From: Thermoplasmatota archaeon
Lineage (GTDB): Archaea > Thermoplasmatota > E2 > JACPAO01 > JAHFTW01
Length of the DNA stretch: 64,000 nt
Reading direction: 5' to 3'
NCBI GenBank assembly: GCA_041601615.1
Contig: JBFIHX010000003.1
Span: 64,001-128,000, forward strand
In this document: positions 10,398-57,023 of the stretch, in pieces
Layout: each line of letters starts with the position of its first letter
Position numbering within the stretch: position 1 is the stretch's first letter
Translations under genes and position numbers: made by a program
The notes under the pieces: generated by a model
The model's input: only the letters and a program-made list of their open reading frames with translations
The model's database searches: none
Told to the model about the DNA's origin: nothing

Positions 10398-10634
10398 ATG
10401 CGAATCGTCGTCGCCCTGATGCTGCTCGTTCCCACCCTCGTGGCGGTCCCCTCGGTGCAGGCCAGTTGTGAAGGCCAAGTCGAAGACACCATTTGCCTCT
10501 ACGGAGCGCTGCAAAACAACCCATGCCAGGCCATCAACGTGTTTTGCCAAACCGCACGACTGCAATCCATCCTCGGCGGCTACATGGAACGCACCTGCGT
10601 GCGCGTCCTCGGCCCATCCTTCTGCTACCTCTAG
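10398..10634 (+). CDS. small secreted six-cysteine peptide (family B, copy 2)
   Basis: signal ending VQA; six Cys, ends CVRVLGPSFCYL. Confidence 0.75.
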   Translation: MRIVVALMLLVPTLVAVPSVQASCEGQVEDTICLYGALQNNPCQAINVFCQTARLQSILGGYMERTCVRVLGPSFCYL

Positions 10635-19095: not shown

Positions 19096-19530
19096 TTACG
19101 AAACGTCTATGTTGCGATCCACGGGCCCGTAGCGCGGGTGGTAGTGTCGACTTTGGCGCACCAAGCCCGCGTCGCAAAGGGATCGAAGGTGGCGCCGAAT
19201 CACCTTGCGGCTCAATTTGAGGGCGATGGCCAACTCTTGGATGCGCACCTCGCCGCGGGCGTAGACGACATCCAGGAGTTCCATCGCCTCGTCTTCGCGC
19301 AGTGCCGCCAAGTGTCGCAGCTGCTCGAACGGCACTTCGGCGGGGAACACCTGAACCTCTCGTCCTTCGCGCCGCACTTGGACTTCGCCATGTTCCTCTA
19401 GGAGCTTGATGTGGCGAAACACCGTGCCCCAGGCCAATCCGGTGGCATCGCACAAGGCCATCTTGTTGATGCCGGGCTGATCCTGGATTACATCCATCAA
19501 TTTCTCTCGGGTTTCGTCGCCTCGTTTCAA
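19096..19530 (-). CDS. tandem winged helix-turn-helix transcriptional regulator
   Basis: PGI....L...TGL.WGTV..H...L...G and second HTH ELA..L.LSRK.I..HL..L...GLV; TTG start overlaps upstream TGA. Confidence 0.8.
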   Translation of the reverse strand: MKRGDETREKLMDVIQDQPGINKMALCDATGLAWGTVFRHIKLLEEHGEVQVRREGREVQVFPAEVPFEQLRHLAALREDEAMELLDVVYARGEVRIQELAIALKLSRKVIRRHLRSLCDAGLVRQSRHYHPRYGPVDRNIDVS

Positions 19531-20909
19531 GAATATCCATCTCCTTCCATTTCCTTCAGGAATCCCCGCAGAGCACGGTTGGCTCCTACCTCGGAGGCCA
19601 TGGCGGGGTCGGCGAGAATGGCTCGGATTGCCTCAGTTCTTGCCTCTTCTAGGGCACCTTGGCCCGCGTGGACACAAGCCCACAAGTACGATCGTACGGC
19701 GGGAGCTACCCGGTCTCCGTGTTGCTCTAAGAGCTTGACGGCGCCCACGAAGTCATTGGTTTTCAGAAGCGATACAGCTCGTGCCACCACGAATTCGGGG
19801 CCGAATCGGCGGCTTGCTTCCATGCCAGCGGTGCTCGCCACGCGCTTGTAGTCGCCGACGGTCATGGCGCGTCGAAGAAGCAGCACTCGAAGGGCCCGAC
19901 CGAACAAGACGACCAGACCAAGAAACAGCAAAAGTCCGAAGAAACTGACACTCAGAATGGTGGTGTCTGTGGTGGACTCCGGCGTTTGCGTCGCAGGGCC
20001 TACTGGGGTGGGGGCGGGCGTTGCAGGGGCGGTGGCCGGCGGGGATTCGATCACGATGTGAGACGAGAAGGAGCCAGATTGGAGGGGCCCCACATCCAGA
20101 TGGAGGGGTCCCATGAGGTTGGTCAACTCTCCACTAGGAAGTTGAATCCCAGCCTGGGTGGCGTCAAGGTGGGTCACATTGGCAAAAATGTGGGTCACTT
20201 CGATCCAGAGGGTTGGGAGCGTGATGGTGCCGTTGGTGACGTGGAGGTACAACCGGCGGTCTTGGTACTCATTGGTGACGGTACCAGGTATGGTCTCGTT
20301 GTGACGGCGCAAGCCGGACCAGTAGCTGGAGCCGTCGGTGGAATTGGAGATTTGCACGTCCCATTCCCAGAAGGACACTTGGAAATCTCCGATCAACGTG
20401 ACGGTGGCGGCGGTTCCAGAAAGGTTGTGCATCTGCGAGACGTTCCAAACGTATTGGCTGCCTGCGCGCTGGAACACTTTGTCCTCGGGCAATGTATCGG
20501 TTTCATGGCCCATCACCTTGAGCCTCGGTCCGTCGATGCGAAGGCTACCGGTGCCGGCAACGTCCAGTCGATATTGGTCGCGGTTGGTGATTCCGTCTAC
20601 GCGGGCGTCGGTCCAGGTGCGGGTCTCCATGGTCTGGTTGGGGCCATGCATGTTGATTTCGGTGCCCACAAGCAGTCCGTCGGAGGAGGTGTATTGGTTG
20701 GCAACGATTTTTTGGGCGTGGATTTCCAACGCGCCATCGGTTGCGACGGAACGCTCGGTTCCGGACTTCAAAACGAGTTGGTTTGCCTCGGTTCGTGCAT
20801 CGCGAGCATCAATGGACACAATCTTGCCTCCGCTCCAAGCTGCAACGGCTGAAGGCGTTACTAGGAGCAGAATGAGGAGCACGATGAGGCTCCGCATGAT
20901 ATGTCCCAT
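19527..20909 (-). CDS. single-pass membrane protein: signal peptide, beta-rich ectodomain, P/T/A linker, TM, TPR-like tail
   Basis: GDFQVSFWEWD motif shared with 52027-53535; TM ILSVSFFGLLLFLGLVVLFG. Confidence 0.8.
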   Translation of the reverse strand: MGHIMRSLIVLLILLLVTPSAVAAWSGGKIVSIDARDARTEANQLVLKSGTERSVATDGALEIHAQKIVANQYTSSDGLLVGTEINMHGPNQTMETRTWTDARVDGITNRDQYRLDVAGTGSLRIDGPRLKVMGHETDTLPEDKVFQRAGSQYVWNVSQMHNLSGTAATVTLIGDFQVSFWEWDVQISNSTDGSSYWSGLRRHNETIPGTVTNEYQDRRLYLHVTNGTITLPTLWIEVTHIFANVTHLDATQAGIQLPSGELTNLMGPLHLDVGPLQSGSFSSHIVIESPPATAPATPAPTPVGPATQTPESTTDTTILSVSFFGLLLFLGLVVLFGRALRVLLLRRAMTVGDYKRVASTAGMEASRRFGPEFVVARAVSLLKTNDFVGAVKLLEQHGDRVAPAVRSYLWACVHAGQGALEEARTEAIRAILADPAMASEVGANRALRGFLKEMEGDGYS

Positions 20910-31940: not shown

Positions 31941-32333
31941 GTGCTCGTTCTTTGCCAAACCTGCCACTTCCAATGCAGTCACCGAGTCCCTTGCAACGGA
32001 GCTGAAACGGAATTTCAAGACCAAGAATGCGCCAGCTGCGGGCATGGAGCAAAATGCCACCCCGTCCCGCTCGCGGACATCACCCACACGCCCGCGACAT
32101 GCTCCATCTGCGACGAGGATGCACACCGCTGGCTCGAGCTTGGGGAATTGACCGTGTACCTTTGCCCAAGCCATGTGGACTTCTGCATCGAATGCCTTTC
32201 AGTTGTGGAAGAGAGCATTGCAGAGGAGGGCAACGTGTGCCGTGAGTGTAAGGCCTTGAATCCTGAGTCCTTCGCGGTTCTTGCTTGCTACGAATGCACT
32301 CCGGGATGTAAGGAGTGCAACGCAACGGTTTGA
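31941..32333 (+). CDS. small multi-CxxC (zinc-finger-like) protein
   Basis: many CxxC/CxxH pairs in 130 aa; heads the defence insert. Confidence 0.55.
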   Translation: MLVLCQTCHFQCSHRVPCNGAETEFQDQECASCGHGAKCHPVPLADITHTPATCSICDEDAHRWLELGELTVYLCPSHVDFCIECLSVVEESIAEEGNVCRECKALNPESFAVLACYECTPGCKECNATV

Positions 32334-32357
32334 TCCCATGGATGCTTCCGACCCCCG

Positions 32358-32855
32358 TTGTCCAGTAAAGAAAACGCATATCAGAAGACCTTCAGAAACT
32401 TGAAAACAGAGCTGCAAGCCAAGGAATTTCTTCTACAGTCGGACAACCGCTTTCACGATACTTCTCTCGGCGTTAAGAAGCTCATTTTGCGACACCTGGG
32501 GTTTGAAGGACGGCTCCCAACCCGAAGTTTCGACCTTGTATTTACGGAGGAGCCGTTTGACCAATTGACGGAAGAAAACATCGATGAACACCTTCCAAAC
32601 CTTGTACTCATTGAAATGAAAGCCACAAAAAACAAAAAAAGAGCGGTAAAAGACGAATCTCTGCGTGGCTTTTTCTTTGGCGCGACGGAAAACGAATTCA
32701 AGATTGCGAGTAAACTTGGGGAGCGTTATCGCTTCGCATTTGTTGTACTCGCAGACAACAACGACCTCGGACGCCCCTTCTATGTGCTGCTGACACTGGA
32801 GGAGTTGGAAAAGCGGATTCGGACGAAGAGAAGGCAGTATCAGATTAACTTGTAG
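32358..32855 (+). CDS. PD-(D/E)xK nuclease (DUF3883-like)
   Basis: FDL...LIEMKAT...TENE...A..L..RY. Confidence 0.7.
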   Translation: MSSKENAYQKTFRNLKTELQAKEFLLQSDNRFHDTSLGVKKLILRHLGFEGRLPTRSFDLVFTEEPFDQLTEENIDEHLPNLVLIEMKATKNKKRAVKDESLRGFFFGATENEFKIASKLGERYRFAFVVLADNNDLGRPFYVLLTLEELEKRIRTKRRQYQINL

Positions 32856-32897
32856 CGCTCCCGACAGATCTATTGATCTACTGGAGTTCGCGATCTT

Positions 32898-34616
32898 GTG
32901 AAGATCAAAGGGCTTGATGTGGAACGGGATTTCCTCAAAGGGATCTTGTCTGGTCGAGGAGTTATGAAAATTCCAATATATCAGCGAGATTATGCGTGGG
33001 GGCCAGAAGATGTTGATAATTTAATGGATTTATTTTTCGAAGCGGCCCCAGAAAGTGACGGCCCAATATTTTTAGGCAATATGGTTTTCCATTCCGAACC
33101 AGACGGGGATGATAATGCTTGGTACTTGGTAGATGGCCAACAAAGGCTGTCGACTACATATCTTATAATTGCCTCGATGTTACACAGACTTAGGAAATCC
33201 GAACATTTGCGTGCTGGCACTATCGCTGCAGAATATATCAAATTATTAACAACCGAGGATGGAATAATTGACACAAATGAAAAAATTCAATCTAATAAAA
33301 TTAGATTGAGGATGAGCGATAAAGATCACCACAGATTTAGAGATTTTATCGTACTTGGGGAGGTGATTGATAGGCGAACTAGATTGGGAAAAGCTCAACG
33401 AAGAATAAGCAATCGTATCAATGAGATGGCATTTAACGACTCTAAATTGATAGAAAATGCTGTTAATTTATATAGGTCTCTAGAAAGCGTAGTATGTGCA
33501 ACTTCAATTGACGTGGAAGACCCAATTGACCCGTTAGCTGTATTTGAGAGCTTAAATAGTAGGGGTGTGAGGCTTAGTGAAAGTGACTTGCTAAAAAATT
33601 ATGTAATGCAACGTACAAATCAACATGATAGAGATGATACATTGGCTAGATGGCGCACAATTGAGAGTAATATTGATGAAAGAATTGTTTCTTTCCTTCG
33701 TGCTTGGCATTTAGCAACTCAAGGGCTCGTGCGCAAAAATGATTTGTATAGGAAATTTAAAAAACTGGTGAATGAACAAGGAGCGACCCCGACACTCGTA
33801 GAATTAGTTAAATGGAGCGAATATTATCGCGATATTAGCAATGCATCTCCGGCTAGATTTACTCAAGACGAGCTCAGAAGGCGAATTAGGGAATTCAATG
33901 GACTCGGATTTCAACAAGCAATGCCATTACTTTTGGCAGCAATTGATCATACGCCTAGCCCAAAACAATTAATAAGGCTTATAGATATGCTTGAATGTGC
34001 ATACATTAGGCTGTTTAGAACCAGACAGATTAGAGGAAGTCTAGTGGAGAATGAATTCATTGATCTTTGTAAGTATTATGTAATTGGTCTGGAAGAGGGT
34101 CTGGCAGAATCAAGTAAAGTTATTAGAAGGCTTTGTGAAGCTTATTGTCCTTCAATGGAAAATGAATGGCCGAGGCTGGAAGTTAATAGTACGGCCGACC
34201 AAGCTTTTATATTGCGAAGACTTGAACAAGCAAGCCAAGGAAACATCTCATGGGTGCCAAGTAGCACTTCATTGGTGGAGATTGAGCACATTCTCCCCAA
34301 ATCATTAGATAAAAAGTATAATTATGGCGTGTCAGAGGATCAACATGAGAGGTTGGTTAATAGGATTGGCAATCTTTGCCTAGTGCTTGAGGAACACAAC
34401 CCAAGGCTCGGTAACAAGCTATTTGAGCTAAAAAAACACATATATTCGTGGTATGATGGTTCGTTACACCAAGGTGACCCGGTTCAGGGACATCGCAGGC
34501 ATGACCTTACCCATAAGTTGTGGTCTGAAAGTGCAAGTACCTGGGGTGAATCTGAAATTGAAACTCGAGGCCAACAATTGGGTGCCCTTGCGGACAGGGC
34601 TTGGCCAATTCCATAG
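32898..34616 (+). CDS. gmrSD: GmrSD-type modification-dependent restriction endonuclease (DUF262 plus DUF1524)
   Basis: PIYQRDYAW, DGQQRL.T, FESLN.RG..L...DL, EHILPK, IGNL, N..LGNK; AT-rich. Confidence 0.88.
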   Translation: MKIKGLDVERDFLKGILSGRGVMKIPIYQRDYAWGPEDVDNLMDLFFEAAPESDGPIFLGNMVFHSEPDGDDNAWYLVDGQQRLSTTYLIIASMLHRLRKSEHLRAGTIAAEYIKLLTTEDGIIDTNEKIQSNKIRLRMSDKDHHRFRDFIVLGEVIDRRTRLGKAQRRISNRINEMAFNDSKLIENAVNLYRSLESVVCATSIDVEDPIDPLAVFESLNSRGVRLSESDLLKNYVMQRTNQHDRDDTLARWRTIESNIDERIVSFLRAWHLATQGLVRKNDLYRKFKKLVNEQGATPTLVELVKWSEYYRDISNASPARFTQDELRRRIREFNGLGFQQAMPLLLAAIDHTPSPKQLIRLIDMLECAYIRLFRTRQIRGSLVENEFIDLCKYYVIGLEEGLAESSKVIRRLCEAYCPSMENEWPRLEVNSTADQAFILRRLEQASQGNISWVPSSTSLVEIEHILPKSLDKKYNYGVSEDQHERLVNRIGNLCLVLEEHNPRLGNKLFELKKHIYSWYDGSLHQGDPVQGHRRHDLTHKLWSESASTWGESEIETRGQQLGALADRAWPIP

Positions 34617-47397: not shown

Positions 47398-50025
47398 CTA
47401 GATGAGGCAGGGGTTTCCAAGGGCGAATGCGAAGTTGTAGCTCAGGACGTAGCCGTATGCTTCCCAGTCCTGGGGGCAAGGCCGGCAGCCCTTCCCGGAT
47501 GCGTCTGTGCCTGCTTGACCTCCTACGTCTGCGGAGTGATAGGTTCCGCCGTCGCACACGGGGCCGCAGCCGTTGCCGCCGGCCAGCCAGTTCAGTATGC
47601 CGGCCGTGCTCAAGGGTGTGGGTGGGGGACAGGCACAGCCGTAGACGCCGCCACCGTACACGGCTCCGACGTTGATGGTGTCGAAGATGATCCACTTGCC
47701 GTTCACACAGGGGGCGCACGGGTTGGCGACTACGGTAGCGGAGTTTCCGACCACGGGGCCGTAGTGGTCTTCGCCGGCGGGGATGTCGCAGGGGTTGCAC
47801 GGGTCAACGAAGAAGCCCGTGTAGGTTCCGAGCAGGCCGTAGACTTCGGAGAACGCCGGGCAGGTGGCGCAGTCGTTCAGGTCTGCGGCGCCGGAGAGGA
47901 TGTCTTGTGGCTCGACGCAGGCGTTGCAGGGGTCCGGCAAGCCGAGGTAGGCAAGCACTTGGCCGACGGGGCACACAACACAGTCGAGCACGTCTTGGGT
48001 GCTGAGGGTGGTGCCGCTGGTGTCGATGCAGGTGTTGCACGGATCGGCCAGGCCAAGATCATTGAGGTTCTGGCCGATGGGGCAGACGATGCAGGTTTGG
48101 ACATCGTCGATCTTCAGGGCCGCGCCGCTTGGGTCGATGCAGGGTTGGCAGGGGTCCGACAGGATGGCCGTGTTGACGGCGAGTCTGTCGGGGCATTCCA
48201 CGCAGTCGGTGGGGACGCCGTCGATTTCAGGCAGCACCTTGGACTCCGTGGTGGTCAGGTCCTTGGCAATGACGCCTGGGGGCAGGCGAGTATCGCAAGG
48301 TGTGCAGTCAATCTTGCCGGGGCCTGGGGTGGCTGCCGAGGCGGACAGGCCGCGTTCCACGAGGGGTAGTTTGTCGGTGCCGATGGGTTCGCAGGGTCTG
48401 CAGGCGTCGGGGCTCTTGGGGAAGGCGACGCCGCCGATGACGTTGTTGGCGAGGGCTTGGACCAAGTCGATGTTGGTCGGGCATAGGCACAGGTGGATTT
48501 CGGCGCCGTCCCAGGCTTTCAGGAGGGCATCGAGGGCCGTGCCGACCACGGGCAATCCGGCTGCGGTGGTCTCCGCGCTGGGGTTGAGGATGCAGTCGGG
48601 TACGATGGGGTCATCGGTGGGCGGGTCTGGCGTCCAGCTGGCCTCTTCAAGGCAGGCAGCGCCGGCCATGGCGTGGCTGACGATGATTTCGAGGGTGGTG
48701 CCGGCCACGACCGGGAGGTACAGGTGGATGGCATTGGCTTCGGACCATGCTTCCGTGCCGGTGCCGTAGCTGTTTTTCTCGTTGATGATCAGACTGCCGC
48801 CGTTGATGAGTCCGATGTGGGTGGTTTGGTCTTCGTCGACGAGGGTGCCAACGAGGCTGCCGCGAACGAGCGCGCTGGAGGCGCGAGCGGCGGCGTAGGC
48901 GCCGGAGGGGTCGGCCACGGCCACGGCGTCGGCAGTGAGTGCTTCGGCGCGCAGGAGTTCGATGCCGTTGGTGGCGTCGGTGAGGACGAACCGTTCGATG
49001 TGGGCGTGTGCTTGGGCGTGGCTACTGTCAAGCGGTTCGTCTGTTTGTGCGGTTGCGTTGAGCACGTCGAGGTCGATGTGGAAATCACCTACGCCGGCGA
49101 CTTGAATCAGGTGCGAGGAGCGGACCATGCTTTGACCGCTGTCGTCGGGTGCCTGTTGGAGGTTGAGGCGGTCGACGAGGACGCTGGCGGGGGTGTTGGG
49201 CTCCTTGAGGCCGACGTACAAGTCGTAGGCTTCAGCGATGGCGTCTTGTTTGATGAACGACAGGATGTGGTCGGTCATGAACGCCTCGAATTGCGCAGGG
49301 CTTGCGGAGTTGAGGTTGGTGTGCAGGCCGTTGGTTTGGGCGGCGATGTAGGCGAGGTAGTCGGTCGCCATGGCGTTGCCGCCGTTTTGCACGGCAAGCA
49401 CTTGGATGCCTTGGGATTGGAGCATGGCGACTTGGGTTTCAAAGTCCAGTTCGTCGCCGGTGTTCAGGAGGCCGTCGGGTCCGGGGTCGTCGCCGGTGTT
49501 GTAGCCGCCGAAGTTGGTGTCGTGGCCGGGGGCGTCGGTGAAGAGGACGACGAGTTGGAGGCCGCCGCGCCAGCCCATGCCGGGTTGGCCGACTTCGTAG
49601 AGGGCGCGCACGAGGGATTCGGGGGTGTCCCAGCCGCTGCCTTGACCGATGGCCTGAATGGAGGCGTCGACGCTGGCGGAGTTGGTGCTGATGGTGTGGT
49701 CAAGGTACCAGGGTTGGTCGGAGGGGTCGCCGTAGCCGGTGGGGTTGTTGGGGTTGCCTTGGACCGGGGGATAGTCTTCGTAGTGGCCAACACCGAAGGC
49801 GGTGCCGGGCCATTCTGCTTCGACGTTTGCCATGATGTTGGAGGCGGTCGATTTGGCGTTGGCGATGACGCCAGCCATGCTGCCCGTGGTGTCGATGACG
49901 AACACGATGTCTACCGTGTTGGGGCGGCAGAGTTCGTTGCCGTCGTCGTCGACAAAGTTGGATTCGGCGAGCGCGCTCGGGATGGGCAGTAGGAAGATAC
50001 AGAGGATGAGTATGGGGAGCTTCAT
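47398..50025 (-). CDS. secreted vWA-domain protein with long cysteine-pair repeat region
   Basis: signal peptide; DIVFVIDTTGSM, D.PE, GWR, FTDA..H; about 15 CxxC/CxC pairs in C-terminal half. Confidence 0.85.
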   Translation of the reverse strand: MKLPILILCIFLLPIPSALAESNFVDDDGNELCRPNTVDIVFVIDTTGSMAGVIANAKSTASNIMANVEAEWPGTAFGVGHYEDYPPVQGNPNNPTGYGDPSDQPWYLDHTISTNSASVDASIQAIGQGSGWDTPESLVRALYEVGQPGMGWRGGLQLVVLFTDAPGHDTNFGGYNTGDDPGPDGLLNTGDELDFETQVAMLQSQGIQVLAVQNGGNAMATDYLAYIAAQTNGLHTNLNSASPAQFEAFMTDHILSFIKQDAIAEAYDLYVGLKEPNTPASVLVDRLNLQQAPDDSGQSMVRSSHLIQVAGVGDFHIDLDVLNATAQTDEPLDSSHAQAHAHIERFVLTDATNGIELLRAEALTADAVAVADPSGAYAAARASSALVRGSLVGTLVDEDQTTHIGLINGGSLIINEKNSYGTGTEAWSEANAIHLYLPVVAGTTLEIIVSHAMAGAACLEEASWTPDPPTDDPIVPDCILNPSAETTAAGLPVVGTALDALLKAWDGAEIHLCLCPTNIDLVQALANNVIGGVAFPKSPDACRPCEPIGTDKLPLVERGLSASAATPGPGKIDCTPCDTRLPPGVIAKDLTTTESKVLPEIDGVPTDCVECPDRLAVNTAILSDPCQPCIDPSGAALKIDDVQTCIVCPIGQNLNDLGLADPCNTCIDTSGTTLSTQDVLDCVVCPVGQVLAYLGLPDPCNACVEPQDILSGAADLNDCATCPAFSEVYGLLGTYTGFFVDPCNPCDIPAGEDHYGPVVGNSATVVANPCAPCVNGKWIIFDTINVGAVYGGGVYGCACPPPTPLSTAGILNWLAGGNGCGPVCDGGTYHSADVGGQAGTDASGKGCRPCPQDWEAYGYVLSYNFAFALGNPCLI

Positions 50026-50302
50026 CGGCCTCGCACAGGCATCGGCTGCTTACCGCTATGCGTCATTTCCCTCCCCACCGGTTTCCTCCTGTTGGATGCA
50101 CCCATGATGGCGGTTTTGCTTCTGTTGTGTATGGAGGTGGATGTTGGGGGTGGCGATTGTGAATGGAGGGCAAAACAAGTTTCCGATGGGGCTTGTGTGG
50201 TCCGGGTAGATGTGGCGTTTGGTGGGGTTCAAAACGCCCGCTCTGGCGCTGGCGGGGTCGACGGACCGCAACCGTCGTGTGCGGGGTGGGGCTCGCGGGG
50301 TC

Positions 50303-51583
50303 GTGGCGGATGTGCTGGATTCGATCCCTCCAGAGATGTGCGTTCGCTGCAAGGCGGCGCGTAGTCTCTGTGGGATCGATCCGTGTCCCCTGTTGCAACG
50401 GGTTCGGGGGCACTTGCCGAAGGTGCAGTTGCCGGGCCGGGATCTGTTTGGCAGCAGTCCGCCAAGTTTGTTCGTGGGGCGCCATGGCTATCCTCGGGTC
50501 AACGTGGGGCCGATGCTGCCGGCAGAGCATTTGTCAGAGGAGTTGGCGCGCAATTTGGACGCACCTCGACGCTGGATCAATGAACTGGGGGTGCCGGATG
50601 TGGTGGGGCTTCGTAGCAGCCTCGTGCGCACGACCCATTCCGTGAAGGTGGCAGACGCGGCCAGAAACCCCGACCGCATTACTCGGCTCAGTCAGGAATT
50701 GGCGGTGGCGGCGCGTCCCGTGGACACGGAGGTGCATCTTCGCAGGATGCCCAGTTTCAGTGTCGCGCACGTGGGTACCTTCACGGCTCCGCACGGTCCG
50801 GTGGTGGAGTTGGATCGGGCGCAATTGACGGAGAACGTCCGCGTGGAGAATCCGGTGGAGCGGGCCACTTCGGACACGGATTTGCGTGCGTCGTCGGCGG
50901 TGGTGCAGATGTTTGATCAGGGCGTGGATCCGTACCAAATGGAGCGGATTCTCAGCGCCGGGATGTTGGGGCTGGAGCGGGGGCGGCGCCTTGTCCCTAC
51001 CCGTTGGGCCATCACCGCGACAGACGATACGCTTGGCAAATCGCTCATCCCGCGCGTCCTGGACCTGCCGACTATCGACAAGCCTACGGTGCATTTTGCG
51101 GAGCGTTTTGGCAACCGCTTCCACATTCTTTTGCTGCCACGCCTCTGGGGCTTCGAGATCGTGGAGAGTTGGCAAAAGGGCTCCTTCTGGGCGCAGGGTC
51201 GAGAGCACGCCCCCGCTGACACGAGTCCCGCTGCCCCGCCTGCGGTGGATTGGGAGGATCACCGCGGCCGCACAGAGTACGCGCACAACGTCACTGGCGG
51301 ATACTACGCAGCTCGGCTTCCGGTGCTGGAGCACATGCTTGCCACGCGCAAACAAGCGACGGCCATCGTGTTGCGCGAAATCTCCGACGAGTACACGACG
51401 CCGCTCGGAGTCTGGGTGGTGCGGGAAGCGGCTCGCTGCGCTTTGGAATCGAAGCCGCTCGTGTTTGAGGACACGGAAAGTGCATTGCGGCACATGGATC
51501 GAAGGGCCCGACTCAAAGATTGGCGGCGGCACGCGGAGTTCTTGCCTCAGGTTTTGCGGCAGCGGACTCTCGAATCATTTTGA
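50303..51583 (+). CDS. nreA: Nre family DNA repair protein
   Basis: C..CK....LCG...CP, GSSPP..FVG..GYP, LVPTRW.ITA.D, C-terminal PIP box QRTLESF. Confidence 0.92.
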   Translation: MADVLDSIPPEMCVRCKAARSLCGIDPCPLLQRVRGHLPKVQLPGRDLFGSSPPSLFVGRHGYPRVNVGPMLPAEHLSEELARNLDAPRRWINELGVPDVVGLRSSLVRTTHSVKVADAARNPDRITRLSQELAVAARPVDTEVHLRRMPSFSVAHVGTFTAPHGPVVELDRAQLTENVRVENPVERATSDTDLRASSAVVQMFDQGVDPYQMERILSAGMLGLERGRRLVPTRWAITATDDTLGKSLIPRVLDLPTIDKPTVHFAERFGNRFHILLLPRLWGFEIVESWQKGSFWAQGREHAPADTSPAAPPAVDWEDHRGRTEYAHNVTGGYYAARLPVLEHMLATRKQATAIVLREISDEYTTPLGVWVVREAARCALESKPLVFEDTESALRHMDRRARLKDWRRHAEFLPQVLRQRTLESF

Positions 51584-51712
51584 TGCGGCGGTCGCGCCGG
51601 GTCTGTCGAGTATCTGGGAAATATCCCCCGGAATCGTCCCAAAACTCGTAGGGATGTGTGAAAAACCCGAGCAAGGCTTAACCTGAAACCCATGGTAGTA
51701 TGGGTGAAATCC

Positions 51713-52024
51713 ATGATATCTCTGGTATTATCAAAGGCACGCCCCCAACATGCGGTACTAATCCTGGCGCTGGCGGGGCTCATGGTTCTTCCAGTGGCAC
51801 AGGCACATCCACCGGCCGAGAATCAAAGCGAAGAGTCGCCCAACTGCGTGTATATGCTCATAAATCACCATAATCCGTACTACTGCGTACCCGGCCTTCC
51901 GCCCCGATGCGGCATTGTGGTCATTTTCTTCACGCTTAACCCGCCCAACGCATGGCCCTCCTACCAACAAGGTTGCGTGGATGAGTGGGATCAGTATGTA
52001 GCCAACATTGTACGGACCGAGTGA
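51713..52024 (+). CDS. small secreted four-cysteine protein
   Basis: GGGTGA RBS before ATG 51713; signal ending AQA; 2 nt upstream of the receptor-like gene. Confidence 0.7.
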   Translation: MISLVLSKARPQHAVLILALAGLMVLPVAQAHPPAENQSEESPNCVYMLINHHNPYYCVPGLPPRCGIVVIFFTLNPPNAWPSYQQGCVDEWDQYVANIVRTE

Positions 52025-52026
52025 GC

Positions 52027-53535
52027 ATGAAAATCCAGGAACGAGGGCTCATTCTAACGCTCGCCATGGTGGGACTTCTCGTGCTCACTGCGGGCCCAGC
52101 AAATGCGCAATCGGAGCGACTTGGCGCTTCCAGTCTTCAATGGAGTGCCGGTTCGGATTTGCAAGGGTCGGTTCCAGTCATGGAGATGATGTATGGTCCG
52201 TTTGCTCGCTTTTCTCTTTCAGCAGAATCATTGCGAATAGAAACGGATGCGAATTTCGTCGATGTGCAACCCGTTGTGCAGGAGCATCCAGAAACTACAA
52301 TCCAAGAGGCAGGCAAATCCACTGTGGAAGGGCAGGAAGCCCGGGTTGATGCCCGCATGTTCATCCATGCCTCCAGGGGGGCCAAATTGGTGGCGCCGGA
52401 CCTTGCCGGATGCGGTGCTGCGCAACCTCCTGTGCGCTCTGCCCACGTCTACCAACCCTTCCTCTCCGGCCGCCCCACCCTCCGCGTCCCCCTCGACGAC
52501 GCAGTGCGCTGGGAACCGTGCGGCGATGGTACCGTGACCTTGCACGGCGACTTCATAATCGCACTCTGGGAGTGGGACGCCGAACTGCGAAGCAGCGACG
52601 GCACGACCATGCTCCAAAGTGGGCGCGGAGACCCGACCGCGGGTGACCTGGGTTCCCGCGAGCAATTCCTGTTTGCCACGAATGCCACCTTGCGCCTGCC
52701 ACCCGGGAAGCAAGTGGTGTACTTGCGCGACCTCAGTGTGAGTACCGGCTCGGCGCACCTAGACGATGCCGAAGGTGAGGTGGCGGGCCGCGCCGTGTCT
52801 GGTGCCTTGGAATTGGAGGGCGATTTGCGCGTGCAAATCCAAGGTCAGGGAGCAAACGCGCCGTTGCAGGCGACCATCGATGGCATCACCGCCGCAAGCA
52901 TCGACGGACAGACCCTGGTGGTGCCAGGTGCGCCGGCTGGGGGCGTGTCGAGGTGGCCGTGGCTCCTGCTCGTGTTGGCGGCTCCCGTGGTTGGAATCGC
53001 CTATGCAAGACCCCACCTTCACTACTTCTACAACGAGCGAAACGGTGGTGAATTGGGCAGCCTCGTGCCAAAATCTCGAGCGCAACGGCGCGGCGTCGGA
53101 GTGTGGATCATGGCTCGCAAGGCCGAACGACGCGGATGGTTCTGGCTCAGTTTCCGGCGCGCCACGCGAGCCAACAACTTGTTTCGACCGTTTCCTGAAG
53201 CGCAGTTCACACGCGCCGTCGCCGCCGGACACCTAGGGCGGCACGCGGACGCCATGACGGACTTCCTGGACCTGTACAACCGCCACGACGAGCCCATGGG
53301 CCGGGCTGCGGCCGCGTGCGGAATCGCCCAGGAATGCTGCCGCATGGAACGCTGGGCCAATGGCAAGGAATGGCTGCTCATAGCGACCACAGAATCGTTC
53401 GAGTATGCACACCAAGCGAGCATAGAGCCGGAGTTTGACCACTTCCAAGGCGAGCCTTGGTTCGATGCAATGCGGCGCGGACGGAACGTGGTGCCGGCGT
53501 TCGAATTCGACCGTGGCGACCCATCGGTCCACTAG
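52027..53535 (+). CDS. single-pass membrane protein: signal peptide, ectodomain, TM, TPR-like tail
   Basis: GDFIIALWEWD motif shared with 19527-20909; TM WPWLLLVLAAPVVGIAY. Confidence 0.8.
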   Translation: MKIQERGLILTLAMVGLLVLTAGPANAQSERLGASSLQWSAGSDLQGSVPVMEMMYGPFARFSLSAESLRIETDANFVDVQPVVQEHPETTIQEAGKSTVEGQEARVDARMFIHASRGAKLVAPDLAGCGAAQPPVRSAHVYQPFLSGRPTLRVPLDDAVRWEPCGDGTVTLHGDFIIALWEWDAELRSSDGTTMLQSGRGDPTAGDLGSREQFLFATNATLRLPPGKQVVYLRDLSVSTGSAHLDDAEGEVAGRAVSGALELEGDLRVQIQGQGANAPLQATIDGITAASIDGQTLVVPGAPAGGVSRWPWLLLVLAAPVVGIAYARPHLHYFYNERNGGELGSLVPKSRAQRRGVGVWIMARKAERRGWFWLSFRRATRANNLFRPFPEAQFTRAVAAGHLGRHADAMTDFLDLYNRHDEPMGRAAAACGIAQECCRMERWANGKEWLLIATTESFEYAHQASIEPEFDHFQGEPWFDAMRRGRNVVPAFEFDRGDPSVH

Positions 53536-53537
53536 CT

Positions 53538-53867
53538 TCAATGCAAGCGATCTTGCCCGAATTCGGACGATCCCAACGGGCCCAACATTCGAGCCTTTTC
53601 CCATTCTTTCCCCTTTTTCCCTTCGTGTGGTGCGGGCTCAGGCGCCCATTCTGGAAGGGGGCCAAGGCCTCGCCGTCGCTCGTCCACCACGCGCCGCAGC
53701 TCGGCATCCCGGTAGCAATCGGCAAGCAACCGGCGACACGCCTCTGTGGCAAACCCGGACATGCTCCGGTGCCCCAGCCAACGCTGTTCACGGATCAGTT
53801 CGTCAATCGCGTCGGCCAGTTCACGCGGTAGCCCTGCCTGTCGGTGGGAAGATCCGTTCTGCAACAA
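53538..53867 (-). CDS. ribbon-helix-helix (CopG-like) protein
   Basis: LP.EL...ID.LI......G..S.S.F..EA.R..L pattern. Confidence 0.6.
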   Translation of the reverse strand: MLQNGSSHRQAGLPRELADAIDELIREQRWLGHRSMSGFATEACRRLLADCYRDAELRRVVDERRRGLGPLPEWAPEPAPHEGKKGKEWEKARMLGPLGSSEFGQDRLH

Positions 53868-53991
53868 GCCGCCGCAGCCTAGCTATGGCATTTAATATCC
53901 CCGAAATCAAGTGGAGAAATGGGGGCAATTGATTGCTGTAGCGCTGGCCCGCTGTGAAAGACCCATAGACACCCGCGTCCATGGCGGTCTC

Positions 53992-54384
53992 ATGGAATAC
54001 GCAATCAAAGCCACCAGCCCGCATGGCTTCGACAGCACCGTCGAACGCGCCCGCGCCGAGCTTGCCCAAGAAGGCTTCGGGGTCCTGACGGAGATCGATA
54101 TGCAGGCAAAAATGCTCGAAAAACTGGACCGGAACATGGACCGATACCTGATTCTCGGTGCCTGCAATCCGCCACTTGCCTGGGATGCCGTACACGCCGA
54201 GCCCGACGTAGGTGTCCTCTTGCCTTGCAACGTCTGCGTCTACGAAAAAGACGGCGCCATTGTCGTCAGCGCCATGGATCCCAACGCGGCCCTGAGCATG
54301 ATCGAAGACCCCACCGTACACCGCGTCGCCGCCGACGCCCGCAAGCGACTGGTCACGGCCGTGGCCAACACCTGCGCCGCCTGA
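53992..54384 (+). CDS. DUF302 family protein
   Basis: GFGVLTEID, Y.ILGACNP, G.LLPCNV.V. Confidence 0.92.
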   Translation: MEYAIKATSPHGFDSTVERARAELAQEGFGVLTEIDMQAKMLEKLDRNMDRYLILGACNPPLAWDAVHAEPDVGVLLPCNVCVYEKDGAIVVSAMDPNAALSMIEDPTVHRVAADARKRLVTAVANTCAA

Positions 54385-54419: not shown

Positions 54420-54610
54420 CTCGTCCCCGCGCCCGCCCCTGCTCCCGTCTCGGTCTCCCACCCACCTCTCCCAACCTCCCTTCTTCTTCGCCGCTCCCAG
54501 CAATCTCTCCCATCCTCCCCTCTCCCCGCCATCTCTCCCATCCTCCCTTCTCCTCAACCCCTCCCATTCTTCCCTCCCATCCTCCGCTCATCCCCCTATC
54601 CACTCTCGGG
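54420..54610 (+). terminator. long C/T-rich tract downstream of DUF302 gene
   Basis: about 190 nt, strongly pyrimidine-rich; similar tracts follow other gene ends. Confidence 0.4.
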
Positions 54611-54659
54611 CCAAGTCCCCTGCCGCAGCGTTCATTGCACCCCCCAGACTGGGCCGCTC

Positions 54660-54983
54660 GTGCAGATTCAGGGCGTCGAACAAATCGACCCGCAGACCGC
54701 CCACAAACGCCAGGGCCAAGGCGTCACCCTCGTGGACGTGCGCGAGGATGAAGAACGGCGATCCGCCAGCATCCCCGGAACCCTCTGGATTCCCCTATCC
54801 ATTTTCGCCAACCGGTGGCAAGAACTCCCAGACGAACCCCTCATCGTCTACTGCGCCGCCGGCGCCCGCAGCCAACAAGCCGCCACATTCCTACAAATGC
54901 AGGGACGCCGCGCCGGCAACCTTCGCGGCGGCATCATGGGCTGGGCCCAAGCCGGATTGCCCCTTGAAACCGGCGACAACTGA
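54660..54983 (+). CDS. rhodanese-like domain protein
   Basis: VDVRE..E....IPG, YCAAGARS, L.GG..GW. Confidence 0.9.
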   Translation: MQIQGVEQIDPQTAHKRQGQGVTLVDVREDEERRSASIPGTLWIPLSIFANRWQELPDEPLIVYCAAGARSQQAATFLQMQGRRAGNLRGGIMGWAQAGLPLETGDN

Positions 54984-55085: not shown

Positions 55086-56339
55086 TTGGACCAAGAACTC
55101 GCGGCCATGCAAGAAAGGCTCGACGCCAACGTCCAGGTCACCATAGCGCCCATAAGCGGCGCCCTCGGCGGCCTCATCGCCTGGGTCGCCTTCACCGAAC
55201 GAGACCTCATCGGCGTCCCCCGCCTGCAAGCCATATTCTGGGCCGACTTGGTCGTTGCCGCATTCTACATCGGCCTCTGTCTCCTATTGTGGCGACGGCC
55301 CGCCCCCGTCCGCTTCGCCCAGATGCTCGCGTTCCTGATCGCACTTGCAGCTATTGCCACCAGTCTCACCACCCTCATCGCGCAACGCGACGCGTCCCCT
55401 CCTTTCACACTCGCCCTCGTCATCCTCGGCGCCGGCCTCGTCTTCCTATCGCAGCGCTGGATGATTGCACTCACGATCACCGTTTGGGTCGCGTGGCTCC
55501 TTGCAACACCCCTCCTCGCAAGCAGCATACGCACAGACTCCCTCTTCATCCTCCAAGTGGCCACCGCCATCGCACTCGTTGCGCACTGGGGGCGTCTACA
55601 CGCCTACCGGCGATTCATCACCGCCGAAAAACTCGAAGCCGCAGGACGACAAAAAGCCGAACGACTCGCCATGGAACTCGAACAATTTGCAAGCGTCGTG
55701 GCACACGACCTGCAAAACCCCCTCACCGCCATCCGACTCAAATGCGCAACCCTCCGACTCCAAGCCCCCGTCACCATCCAAAGCACCATCGACGCCCTCG
55801 ACCACGTCGCCGACAACATGGGGCACATGATCAGCGACCTTCTCGACTACGCACGCGCCGGCAGCCGCACCTTCCTCCGAGAAGCCGTCCCGCTCGCCTC
55901 GGTGTTTCACGAAATTGAAGTCATCTTCCAAGAACGATTTGAGGCGGCCGGCGCCAGACTCGAAAGCGAAGGCCTACCCACCGTCTACGGCGACCCAACC
56001 CAGCTCACCCAACTGTTCCAAAACCTCATCGGAAACGCCCTGCACTACCGGCACCCCACCCGCCCACTCCGCGTCTTCGTCCATGGCGCAAGCGTCCCCG
56101 ACGGCGTCGTCGTCACCGTCGCCGACAACGGCCAAGGCTTCGACCCATCCATCCGAGAACGCATGTTCATGCCGTTCCAACGCGGCGACACCACCCACAC
56201 CGGACACGGGCTCGGACTCGCCACATGCAGACGCATCATGGAATCTATGAACGGCACCATCGAAGCCGCCAGCCAACCCAGCGGCGGAGCACTGTTTACG
56301 CTCTGGTTTCCTGCCGTCACAAACACAACCAGCAATTAG
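55086..56339 (+). CDS. membrane sensor histidine kinase
   Basis: several TMs; AHDLQNPL, QNLIGNA, DNGQG, GLGLA. Confidence 0.92.
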   Translation: MDQELAAMQERLDANVQVTIAPISGALGGLIAWVAFTERDLIGVPRLQAIFWADLVVAAFYIGLCLLLWRRPAPVRFAQMLAFLIALAAIATSLTTLIAQRDASPPFTLALVILGAGLVFLSQRWMIALTITVWVAWLLATPLLASSIRTDSLFILQVATAIALVAHWGRLHAYRRFITAEKLEAAGRQKAERLAMELEQFASVVAHDLQNPLTAIRLKCATLRLQAPVTIQSTIDALDHVADNMGHMISDLLDYARAGSRTFLREAVPLASVFHEIEVIFQERFEAAGARLESEGLPTVYGDPTQLTQLFQNLIGNALHYRHPTRPLRVFVHGASVPDGVVVTVADNGQGFDPSIRERMFMPFQRGDTTHTGHGLGLATCRRIMESMNGTIEAASQPSGGALFTLWFPAVTNTTSN

Positions 56340-56360: not shown

Positions 56361-57023
56361 ATGGCCCAGTTCGTCCCCTACCAACCAGAGCACGTACCCG
56401 CCGACCTGAGCCTCACCCGCGCCCGCGCCTTCCGCGAAGACCTCGATGGCCGCCGCACCGTGCGCATGTTCGACCCCAACCGACCCGTCGACCGCGCCGT
56501 CATCGAAGAAGTGCTGCTTGCCGCCGGCACCGCCCCCAGCGGCGCCCACAAACAACCCTGGACCTTCGTCGCCATCTCGGACCACGAACTCAAAACCCGC
56601 ATCCGCGAAGCGACCGAAGAACAAGAACGCCGATTCTACGACGAAGTCGCCCCCGACGAATGGCTCGCCGACCTCGAACCACTCGGCACCGACTTCCTAA
56701 AAGCACACATCACCGACGCCCCCTGGCTCCTCGTGGTCTTTGCACAAGACTACGCCCTCGCCCCCGACGGCACCAAGTCCAAACACTACTACGTCAACGA
56801 ATCCGTCGGCATCGCCTGCGGCTTCCTCCTCGCCGCCATCCGCCGCGCAGGACTCGTCGCGCTCACCCACACACCAAGCCCCATGACGTACCTACGCGAC
56901 CTCCTGGACCGACCCAAAAACGAACGCACCTACCTCGTCCTCCCCGTCGGCTACCCCGCGCCCGACTGCAACGTTCCCGACCTCGACCGCAAACCCCTCG
57001 ACGCCTTCGTGGCATGGAAATGA
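56361..57023 (+). CDS. nitroreductase family, iodotyrosine deiodinase-like
   Basis: RRTVR.F, AGTAPSGAH.QPW, E..FY, YYV.ESVGIA.G, LTHTPSPM, RP.NE. Confidence 0.85.
   Translation: MAQFVPYQPEHVPADLSLTRARAFREDLDGRRTVRMFDPNRPVDRAVIEEVLLAAGTAPSGAHKQPWTFVAISDHELKTRIREATEEQERRFYDEVAPDEWLADLEPLGTDFLKAHITDAPWLLVVFAQDYALAPDGTKSKHYYVNESVGIACGFLLAAIRRAGLVALTHTPSPMTYLRDLLDRPKNERTYLVLPVGYPAPDCNVPDLDRKPLDAFVAWK

Follow-up and report, generated by a model that had tools for sequence, protein, structure and literature searches.

Do the three closely packed genes at positions 51713-53867 of an archaeal genome segment form a device that carries information from the cell surface to DNA, or do they merely lie side by side? 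The segment, hereafter the window, is a stretch of 64,000 nucleotides from a Thermoplasmatota archaeon (G000:C3:64001-128000) with a GC content of approximately 62%. Its source genome comprises 2.79 Mb on 30 contigs and is 93% complete. In line with an archaeal origin, the window carries an Nre gene, and the nearest public relatives are two contigs of metagenome-assembled genomes labeled 'Thermoplasmatota archaeon'. The first gene (51713-52024, plus strand) encodes a small, putatively secreted protein with four cysteines, 103 amino acids long when counted from the ATG at 51713; an alternative ATG lies at 51692. Two nucleotides after its stop codon comes the ATG of the second gene (52027-53535, plus strand), which encodes a 502-residue single-pass membrane protein of what we call the WEWD family. 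The stop codon of that gene is in turn 2 nt away from the stop codon of a convergent gene (53538-53867, minus strand, TTG start) for a 109-residue protein that resembles ribbon-helix-helix (RHH) proteins. The three genes and both 2-nt spacings had been put forward in an original prediction made from the sequence alone, and we confirmed their coordinates from the open reading frames (ORFs). As argued below, we consider it somewhat more likely than not that the three genes constitute one cassette of a lineage-specific archaeal transmembrane signaling family, consisting of a co-sensor, a receptor, and a tethered regulator.

The WEWD protein and its family

We modeled the 502-residue protein with AlphaFold2 using an alignment of 86 rows and obtained a mean predicted local distance difference test (pLDDT) score of 90. 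The model consists of a helix at residues 3-20, a region from residue 30 to residue 297 that contains only strands (several of them 18-24 residues long), a helix at residues 310-338, and nine helices at residues 351-492. The hydrophobic helix at residues 3-20 can be read as a signal peptide, and the model supports a receptor-like topology of signal peptide, ectodomain, one transmembrane helix, and cytoplasmic tetratricopeptide repeat (TPR) domain. Following the predicted transmembrane helix (residues 310-338; 52954-53040, plus strand) is a juxtamembrane stretch rich in arginine and lysine, RPHLHYFYNERNGG...KSRAQRRG, which would lie on the cytoplasmic side of the membrane and fits the positive-inside rule.

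The ectodomain (residues 28-305; 52108-52941, plus strand) is predicted to be an all-beta domain of approximately 280 residues with very long strands. It carries the motif GDFIIALWEWD (residues 174-184; 52546-52578, plus strand), and the conserved columns of its alignment include G174, W181, G199, G250, and G265 as well as C129 and C165, which are nearly invariant. When the ectodomain is modeled alone (AlphaFold2, 120 rows), its pLDDT score is 93 and its predicted template-modeling score is 0.88. Comparison of this domain with 48,161 chains of solved folds using VIA-align produced no match that counted at Z ≥ 5; the best re-aligned row has Z 5.0 and a root-mean-square deviation (rmsd) of 6.3 over 110 aligned residues. 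Template-modeling scores in Foldseek searches did not exceed 0.19 in the PDB, where the low-scoring noise came from aerolysin-like pore formers, outer-membrane barrels, and viral glycoproteins, or 0.24 among the viral structures in BFVD. The ESM Atlas yielded no usable match for the ectodomain, and structure searches with the whole-protein model returned matches confined to the TPR part. Likewise, no Pfam or NCBIfam model matches the ectodomain in any of 24 paralogs from the same genome. The ectodomain fold is apparently new, with the reservation that a weak or missing match is not proof of novelty.

The cytoplasmic tail (residues 351-492; 53077-53502, plus strand) is predicted to form approximately three TPR repeats plus capping helices. 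In VIA-align comparisons, all 121 residues of the OM64 TPR domain (6hpg_A) align to it with a Z of 13.9 and an rmsd of 2.4, the TPRs of Hop/Sti1 score Z 13-14, and many other three-repeat TPR domains score Z 12-14, where values of up to approximately 13 can arise by chance for helical repeats. Foldseek reports template-modeling scores (TMt) of 0.74-0.78 to Hop TPR2A and STI-1. The Pfam model TPR_16 matches the 502-residue protein with an E value of 0.054, which does not reach the Pfam cutoff, and TPR models match five of the 24 paralogs, the best with an E value of 1.7e-5. Structure prediction and paralogs together confirm, at the level of a model, the assignment of the tail as a TPR repeat domain.

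The protein is one of many. A distant paralog with the same architecture (19527-20909, minus strand; 460 amino acids) lies in the window and was recognized by BLASTP (E 9e-8, 31% identity over 85 residues) and by alignment, which places its motif GDFQVSFWEWD at the same position as GDFIIALWEWD. With a profile made from the ectodomain only, we found 23 ORFs in the source genome at E ≤ 1e-5. A HMMER scan of 1.84 billion representative sequences with a threshold of E ≤ 1e-3 retrieved 176 proteins, which with few exceptions are 450-550 amino acids long, and only five are closer than approximately 47% identity. The 502-residue protein displays the full plan of the family, namely a signal peptide, a beta ectodomain of approximately 300 residues with G-D-F-x4-W-x-W-D and conserved glycine positions, and one transmembrane helix. 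In a census based on samples, with at most seven candidates scored per genome, 24 of 301 Thermoplasmatota genomes (the source genome included) have family matches. Broken down by family of genomes, there are matches in 8 of 9 searched genomes of the window's own family (f1), in the single searched genome of each of f2 and f3, and in 7 of 9 of f15, and in none of 36 of f4 or 11 of f5. Judged by these searches, the WEWD family is specific to Thermoplasmatota and appears to have undergone a lineage-specific expansion.

To see how the parts of the locus change, we compared the window with a genome of the same genus (G002, locus L009). Identity is 41% (110/271) in the ectodomain, 55% in the transmembrane and juxtamembrane region, and 77% (108/140) in the TPR domain. 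For the RHH-like homolog of G002, identity is 76% across 58% of the query, and the two cysteine proteins have low identity, sharing little beyond four cysteines and a QY. In these alignments the parts predicted to lie outside the cell change fast together, and the parts inside are constrained.

DNA-binding genes at WEWD loci

The paralog at 19527-20909 had been described in the original prediction as coupled to a winged helix-turn-helix (wHTH) gene, and this was borne out. Its stop codon lies within a 4-nt overlap with the start of a gene (19096-19530, minus strand) encoding a 144-residue tandem winged-helix protein, which has two HTH stretches and matches the Pfam models HTH_24 (E 2.1e-14), MarR_2 (1.7e-10), and HTH_HVO_0163_N (9.9e-9) as well as an NCBIfam ArsR/SmtB model (1.7e-14). 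HVO_0163 reportedly occurs in one acetylome paper. Alignment of the 24 paralogs of the source genome distinguishes two types of tail behind the transmembrane helix, a TPR-like helical tail and a tandem wHTH, the latter in six proteins. Consistent with this count, HTH_20 matches six of the 24 tails and HTH_HVO_0163_N also matches six; Penicillinase_R weakly matches three (best E 5.5e-5). The ectodomains of the fused and TPR types are related according to hhalign (probability 93.9%, E 1.6e-7, 91 columns), and a type 1 hidden Markov model (HMM) matches one type 2 member with an E value of 6.4e-6.

The same kind of regulator recurs as a separate gene. Directly downstream of 7 of the 17 unfused paralogs, that is, with an ORF start within -120 to +150 nt on the same strand, we found a tandem wHTH gene, compared with 23 of 2258 called genes (binomial p 2e-10); the gene calls come from a home-made dicodon frame-comparison model, which is imperfect. 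Six of these seven downstream proteins went into the wHTH profile, but Pfam wHTH models match all seven. Three further unfused paralogs have a tandem wHTH gene 1.8-2.1 kb away. At loci in other genomes, a link to a DNA-binding gene is present in 26 of 35 unique cases: the tandem wHTH is fused in five, encoded directly downstream in 11, encoded in an overlapping frame in two, and divergent 479-661 nt upstream in four, and a convergent RHH homolog lies 0-11 nt from the receptor stop codon in four, with a fifth RHH case at a partial locus (L010). The association with adjacent HTH and RHH genes that the original prediction had proposed to look for is, by these counts, non-random.

Beyond the WEWD family, the plan of signal peptide, outside part, one transmembrane helix, and C-terminal tandem wHTH is shared by at least seven further proteins of the source genome, whose outside parts range in size from short acidic linkers to approximately 630 residues (C5:124336-125409, C8:28257-29402, C2:163284-164525, C2:162793-163695, C3:204852-207317, C3:14707-16578, and C5:173487-174284). 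The membrane-tethered tandem wHTH is thus, judged by sequence features, a general design in this organism.

In the cassette at 51713-53867, the DNA-binding candidate is the convergent RHH-like gene. Its product has the conserved core HRQAG[LI]PRELADA...WLGHRS.SGFAT.A and matches Pfam RHH_1 with an E value of 0.09 (13.2 bits against a cutoff of 20.5); five of its homologs have no Pfam match at E ≤ 10. When the family profile was compared with the PDB, the best hit was the MazE6 antitoxin (E 0.32), and a protein language model places RHH_6/RHH_1 clusters nearest, with values of 0.90-0.91 that shuffled proteins also attain in 4-10 of every 100 cases. Given these three weak but concordant leads, RHH is a probable label for the fold. 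Over a core of 56 codons, the window and G002 differ by 22 synonymous and 12 non-synonymous codon changes, with 28 differences at codon position 3 and 9 and 7 at positions 1 and 2, respectively. Because synonymous and third-position changes predominate, the RHH-like ORF appears to evolve as a coding sequence under purifying selection.

We found seven homologs of the RHH-like protein at 51-76% identity in a large public protein set that lacks the copy from the window; behind other paralogs, too, comparable small convergent genes are probably under-annotated. At five loci from at least three genera (L009, L010, L011, L013, and L014), an RHH-like homolog abuts the receptor stop codon. The genomes concerned are G002, G001, G003, G023, and G024 (hmmsearch E 2e-35 to 9e-7), and hhalign probabilities for the abutting proteins are 79-96% versus at most 4.2% for 40 controls.

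Conserved order by itself could have a trivial cause. In G002 the genes follow one another as Nre, secreted cysteine protein, WEWD protein (there WNWD), convergent RHH-like gene, DUF302, and rhodanese, and a partial contig of a second genome of the genus (G001, locus L010) keeps the last four, so that the order and orientation of the three cassette genes are conserved in two same-genus genomes, one of them in part. Since Nre, DUF302, and rhodanese hold their places in both G002 and G001 although no link is evident, the adjacency of the three genes might be incidental and reflect nothing beyond synteny within the genus. We regard that explanation as very improbable and largely refuted, since receptor and RHH gene still abut in G003, G023, and G024, whose loci lack the other neighbors, and since Cys-loop proteins (described below) recur upstream at paralogous loci. 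Because Nre, DUF302, and rhodanese adjoin the receptor only within the genus, the conserved pair is receptor and RHH gene rather than RHH gene and DUF302.

The source genome has six members of the RHH-like family: one abuts the gene at 52027-53535, two lie 1.1-1.6 kb from a paralog on contig C11, one lies 4.8 kb from a paralog on C2, and two are elsewhere. We built a quick, poorly resolved tree from 58 ectodomains, in which a single group of 13 rows (SH-aLRT, an approximate likelihood ratio test, 92) contains the C11 row together with every one of the five RHH-abutted rows. None of these 13 has an adjacent or fused wHTH, versus 34 of the 45 rows outside the group, and mapping partner labels onto the tree requires 22 changes versus a mean of 34.6 for shuffled labels (none of 200 shuffles was as low). 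Complex prediction for the TPR tail (residues 340-502, 86 rows) with the RHH-like protein (13 rows) gave a score of 0.00 in two runs made with no controls, a result that is not evidence either way.

Other paralogs have behind them a small convergent ORF that looks, by eye, like strand-helix-helix. It abuts or overlaps the receptor stop codon at L022 2044-2307 (minus strand), L020 4128-4472 (plus), L024 4205-4438 (plus), and L044 3039-3500 (minus), and a further ORF of this appearance is L026 4081-4356. These candidates were not counted as members of the RHH family, with hhalign probabilities of at most 0.3% and no Pfam RHH match. The L044 ORF has a weak match to an Rv0078B-related antitoxin model (E 0.011).

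It is conceivable that the role of WEWD proteins at the cell surface is structural or adhesive, for example in the envelope of a wall-less archaeon, with the wHTH and RHH proteins as local operon regulators and the upstream proteins as envelope subunits. The many paralogs with fast-evolving outside parts, the numerous secreted and lipoprotein neighbors, and an ectodomain with neither a sensor-domain signature nor a known fold are all in line with such a role, and a convergently oriented RHH gene would suit a regulator that acts independently. We nevertheless think this unlikely. A tandem wHTH fused behind the transmembrane helix, as found in six paralogs of this genome and five foreign ones, is hard to explain for a local regulator, and the TPR domain is the best conserved part of the protein (77% versus 41% for the ectodomain), which points to a conserved intracellular partner.

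Upstream secreted proteins and other genes of the window

The four-cysteine protein begins with a segment resembling a signal peptide (...LMVLPVAQA), which would leave a mature part of approximately 72 amino acids with all four cysteines. Its C-terminal module, C-x21-C-x3-W-D, is referred to here as the Cys-loop. The ORF has a positive coding score in the home-made frame model. Neither Pfam nor NCBIfam contains a matching model, a search of 5.8 billion clusters found only the protein itself, and the best other hits of phmmer in the source genome have E values of 0.037 and 1.1. The protein at the corresponding position in G002 (L009 950-1453) has two tandem four-cysteine modules, and the window protein aligns with the second of them with all four cysteines kept.

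Genes for small secreted proteins are common in this position. A co-directional gene for a secreted-like protein of 70-300 amino acids lies within 150 nt upstream of 11 of the 23 paralogs, compared with 78 of 1019 genes of at least 300 amino acids (p 3e-7), and so the upstream enrichment that had likewise been proposed as a check is present. The N-terminal parts of the proteins upstream of TPR-type receptors are varied, some of them fn3-like (weak Pfam match, E 0.0048). Their recurrent C-terminal segment consists of a cysteine, a hydrophobic stretch, often D/N-P-P-F, approximately 20 residues, and a second cysteine followed by x3-hydrophobic-W/D; we spotted it by eye in the window, in G002, in G023, and at five other loci of the source genome, two of whose genes the home-made gene caller had missed. 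This module, once picked, was tested with leave-one-out profile HMMs against 2253 other genes. The window's four-cysteine protein ranks first (E 0.005), as do the proteins from C20, C1, and C11; that from C19 ranks second, those from C13 and C3_157831 rank 61st and 105th, and that from C4_12958 is not found. An HMM built from four foreign modules, although misaligned, retrieves a single protein, the four-cysteine protein of the window (E 0.077). An enrichment obtained with a regular expression for the Cys-loop (6/11 versus 21/368) is circular, the pattern having been taken from the same proteins, and is not used as evidence. Because leave-one-out profiles rank it first, the four-cysteine protein is probably a member of a small Cys-loop family whose genes lie upstream of TPR-type receptors.

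Fused-type cassettes have a different upstream protein, a homologous lipoprotein of approximately 270 amino acids that is often preceded by a further small secreted protein. Examples are L028 3755-4561, L030 (C7:84315-85124), L031 3660-4538, L035 1539-2396, and L039 (C3:344274-345074), all 265-292 amino acids long and all with a cysteine among the last seven residues. BLASTP comparison of the upstream proteins with one another links just three of these fused-type lipoproteins (E 1e-31 to 3e-21), and no family in Pfam or NCBIfam matches the upstream secreted proteins and lipoproteins.

Diversity of this kind might also be expected of a polymorphic system for cell-cell recognition or conflict, such as kin discrimination or defense, in which the ectodomain and the Cys-loop protein would be identity or receptor-decoy determinants and the DNA-binding proteins would mount a response. 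There are 23 divergent paralogs in 2.8 Mb and the distribution is patchy (24 of 301 Thermoplasmatota genomes), the outside parts diverge approximately twice as fast as the inside parts, and the four-cysteine protein has no detectable relatives outside the genus. Fast divergence of exposed domains is also usual in ordinary receptors, however, and neither Pfam nor NCBIfam detects a toxin, nuclease, immunity, or mobile-element domain in the cassettes examined. We judge a recognition or conflict system, which corresponds to the self-recognition variant of the original prediction, to be distinctly improbable.

The original prediction drew an analogy to RRNPP quorum sensing. RRNPP receptors (Rap, NprR, PlcR, and PrgX) reside in the cytoplasm as soluble TPR proteins, in most cases fused to an HTH, and their ligands are short peptides that the cell imports. 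In an RRNPP-like scheme, the small protein would be processed to a peptide that is sensed by the TPR domain, which in turn controls the RHH regulator. The locus does combine a secreted small protein, a TPR protein, and an adjacent DNA-binding gene, a genetic linkage that it shares with RRNPP systems, and PlcR is among the structural neighbors of the TPR tail, though its Z of 12.2 is no higher than that of dozens of unrelated TPRs. Against this, the TPR domain is tethered to the membrane behind a 280-residue ectodomain and has no fused HTH, the presumed peptide is a disulfide domain of approximately 72 residues with four cysteines, its conserved part is a disulfide loop rather than a short C-terminal peptide, and there is no Opp-type importer in the conserved neighborhood. 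The analogy is therefore weak, and RRNPP-like signaling is the least credible of the explanations considered, a highly improbable one.

The arrays of six-cysteine peptides near the start of the window (0.5-1.5 kb) had been suggested as further ligands or outputs, and this found no support: no WEWD family member adjoins them, and they are not detectably related to the four-cysteine protein. Three of these small secreted proteins (87-96 amino acids) are encoded in tandem on the plus strand (493-783, 918-1199, and 1238-1501) with shared cysteine spacing, and a fourth (10398-10634, plus strand; 78 amino acids) lies 9 kb away. The first (493-783) has no Pfam match.

The cassette is flanked upstream by the gene for an Nre protein (50210-51583; Pfam E 1e-83). 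On its other side, all on the plus strand, are genes for a DUF302 protein (53911-54384; E 2e-23) and a rhodanese-domain protein (54606-54983; E 7.5e-15), both syntenic within the genus only, a membrane histidine kinase with HisKA and HATPase_c domains (55086-56339), and a nitroreductase (56361-57023). The public sequencing runs listed for positions 51600-54000 comprise four DNA runs of one marine metagenome study, two of which may be the source, and no RNA run. Just upstream of the Nre gene is a gene for a secreted 875-residue protein (47398-50025, minus strand) with an N-terminal VWA domain (E 1e-6) and 35 cysteines in repeated 'DPC..C' units. Elsewhere in the window, positions 32001-34000 form an island of low GC content (0.44 versus approximately 0.62) next to an isoleucyl/valyl-type tRNA synthetase gene. 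ORFs 32358-32855 and 32898-34616 (plus strand) of this island encode a GmrSD-type restriction endonuclease (GmrSD_N E 6e-31, GmrSD_C 1.4e-17), probably a horizontally acquired defense gene.

A proposed signaling cassette and its relation to known systems

The reading that we favor is a transmembrane signaling cassette. The 502-residue protein would be the receptor, with a cleaved signal peptide, an extracellular all-beta domain, one transmembrane helix, and a cytoplasmic TPR domain. Outside the cell, the secreted Cys-loop protein may bind or complete the ectodomain, as a co-sensor or a ligand, through its disulfide-closed C-terminal loop. The state of the ectodomain would then be passed through the single transmembrane helix to the TPR tail, which would hold or release a DNA-binding partner. 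In most of the family this partner would be the tandem wHTH protein, either fused in place of the TPR domain or encoded directly downstream, and the coexistence of fused and split forms in one family suggests tethering; the fused paralogs could be viewed as a covalent version of the TPR-plus-partner device. For the cassette of the window, the most likely candidate is the convergent RHH-like protein, presumed to bind DNA. Such a cassette would work like a co-component system of the ToxR/ToxS type or an anti-sigma/sigma pair, with archaeal regulators. We infer the physical interactions within the cassette, the direction of signaling, and DNA binding by the RHH-like protein, and release of the regulator by proteolysis would be pure speculation.

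A full-text literature search found no description of the WEWD family. Relatives of the fused paralogs may be listed in the supplementary census tables of transmembrane transcription regulators (TTRs) (PMC10269533 File S1), and the accessible portions of 'Dark matter in archaeal genomes' (PMC4158269) contain nothing on the family. According to Demey et al. 2023 (PMC10269533), a survey of TTRs of the ToxR, CadC, and TcpP type in bacteria and archaea, a TTR has a DNA-binding domain and at least one transmembrane region in one polypeptide, and archaeal genomes have approximately 4 (± 2) of them. The six fused paralogs of the source genome, single-pass proteins in which an outside domain is joined to a DNA-binding one, come within that definition (PMC10269533), and at least 13 proteins of this genome combine a signal peptide, a transmembrane helix, and a tandem wHTH, against the approximately 4 (± 2) TTRs of that survey. 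The 502-residue protein itself differs from TTRs in lacking a DNA-binding domain; it has a TPR domain at that point, and the regulator is encoded separately. The WEWD ectodomain family is further set apart by having no Pfam model and no solved relative. ToxR and CadC have the reverse topology to the WEWD family, in which the sensor is N-terminal and outside and the DNA-binding part is C-terminal.

In ToxR/ToxS and VtrA/VtrC, as portrayed in the abstract of PMC9214523, a small co-transcribed extracytoplasmic partner forms a receptor with the outside domain of the regulator, and the cassettes evolve fast. As in those systems, an adjacent co-directional gene here encodes a putative extracytoplasmic partner (2-nt gap, signal peptide), an arrangement found at 11 of 23 paralogs. 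The partner differs in being encoded upstream; it is a Cys-loop protein that is secreted, and its place in fused-type cassettes is taken by a lipoprotein. ToxR/ToxS and VtrA/VtrC have no sequence or fold relation to the WEWD cassette, in which a heterodimer is presumed by analogy.

Pairs of anti-sigma factors and extracytoplasmic function (ECF) sigma factors also link an outside sensor domain through one transmembrane helix to a cytoplasmic domain, which holds a regulator encoded by a separate, neighboring gene. The likeness to the WEWD cassette is one of logic only: the partners here are wHTH or RHH proteins and the putative holding domain is a TPR. Pfam finds only TPR and wHTH models in the 24 paralogs and no anti-sigma or sigma model in the receptor or its neighbors, and archaea are not known to have sigma-70 factors. 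BlaR1/BlaI and MecR1/MecI likewise combine a transmembrane sensor with a separately encoded winged-helix repressor, but the WEWD sensor has neither a protease domain nor a penicillin-binding ectodomain according to Pfam. By analogy, the cassette resembles ToxR/ToxS or anti-sigma systems more than RRNPP systems.

Several observations weigh against a signaling cassette. The RHH fold is not established, since the sequence matches are all below their thresholds, and the crude frame model used for gene calls in this genome missed the RHH-like gene (score -1.1). The RHH gene is convergent, hence not co-transcribed with the receptor, and its conserved abutment could mean shared regulation or transcriptional interference instead of binding; the orientation leaves room for a purely regulatory relation. 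Homology between the fused-type and TPR-type ectodomains is restricted to the membrane-proximal third of the domain. Four of the 23 loci in this genome have no DNA-binding link, nor do 9 of the 35 foreign loci, where flanks extend approximately 1-1.5 kb and two of the nine have no downstream sequence. Among the upstream proteins, three of eight failed the leave-one-out test of a module that was initially chosen by eye. Finally, paralogs and related genomes are not independent, and the p-values of both enrichments (2e-10 and 3e-7) are overstated.

The original prediction of an undescribed archaeal surface signaling system stands in part: a receptor topology, linkage to DNA-binding genes, linkage to upstream secreted proteins, and a family without a description all support it, and its RRNPP analogy is weak. 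The cassette is a credible variant of membrane-to-DNA signaling with an apparently new sensor fold. According to PMC10269533, membrane-bound regulators number approximately four per archaeal genome, against which stand 23 members of one receptor family in 2.8 Mb here. Little is known about how uncultured marine archaea transduce signals. The family series, in which the regulator is fused, adjacent, or convergent, offers a testable hypothesis for how information could pass from membrane to DNA without kinases, and the cassettes are small (three genes), with domains predicted with high confidence. More tentatively, and at less than even confidence, we suggest that a previously undescribed modular form of transmembrane signaling may be a main sensory repertoire of these marine Thermoplasmatota, with more than 20 cassettes per genome, in which a new-fold ectodomain pairs with a Cys-loop protein on the outside and a TPR domain on the inside tethers and releases wHTH or RHH regulators, as an independently evolved functional counterpart of anti-sigma/sigma pairs. 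If confirmed, the family would bring a new sensor fold and, in the Cys-loop, a new partner module, together with a TPR-based regulator tether, to the ways in which these archaea may connect their surface to their genes.

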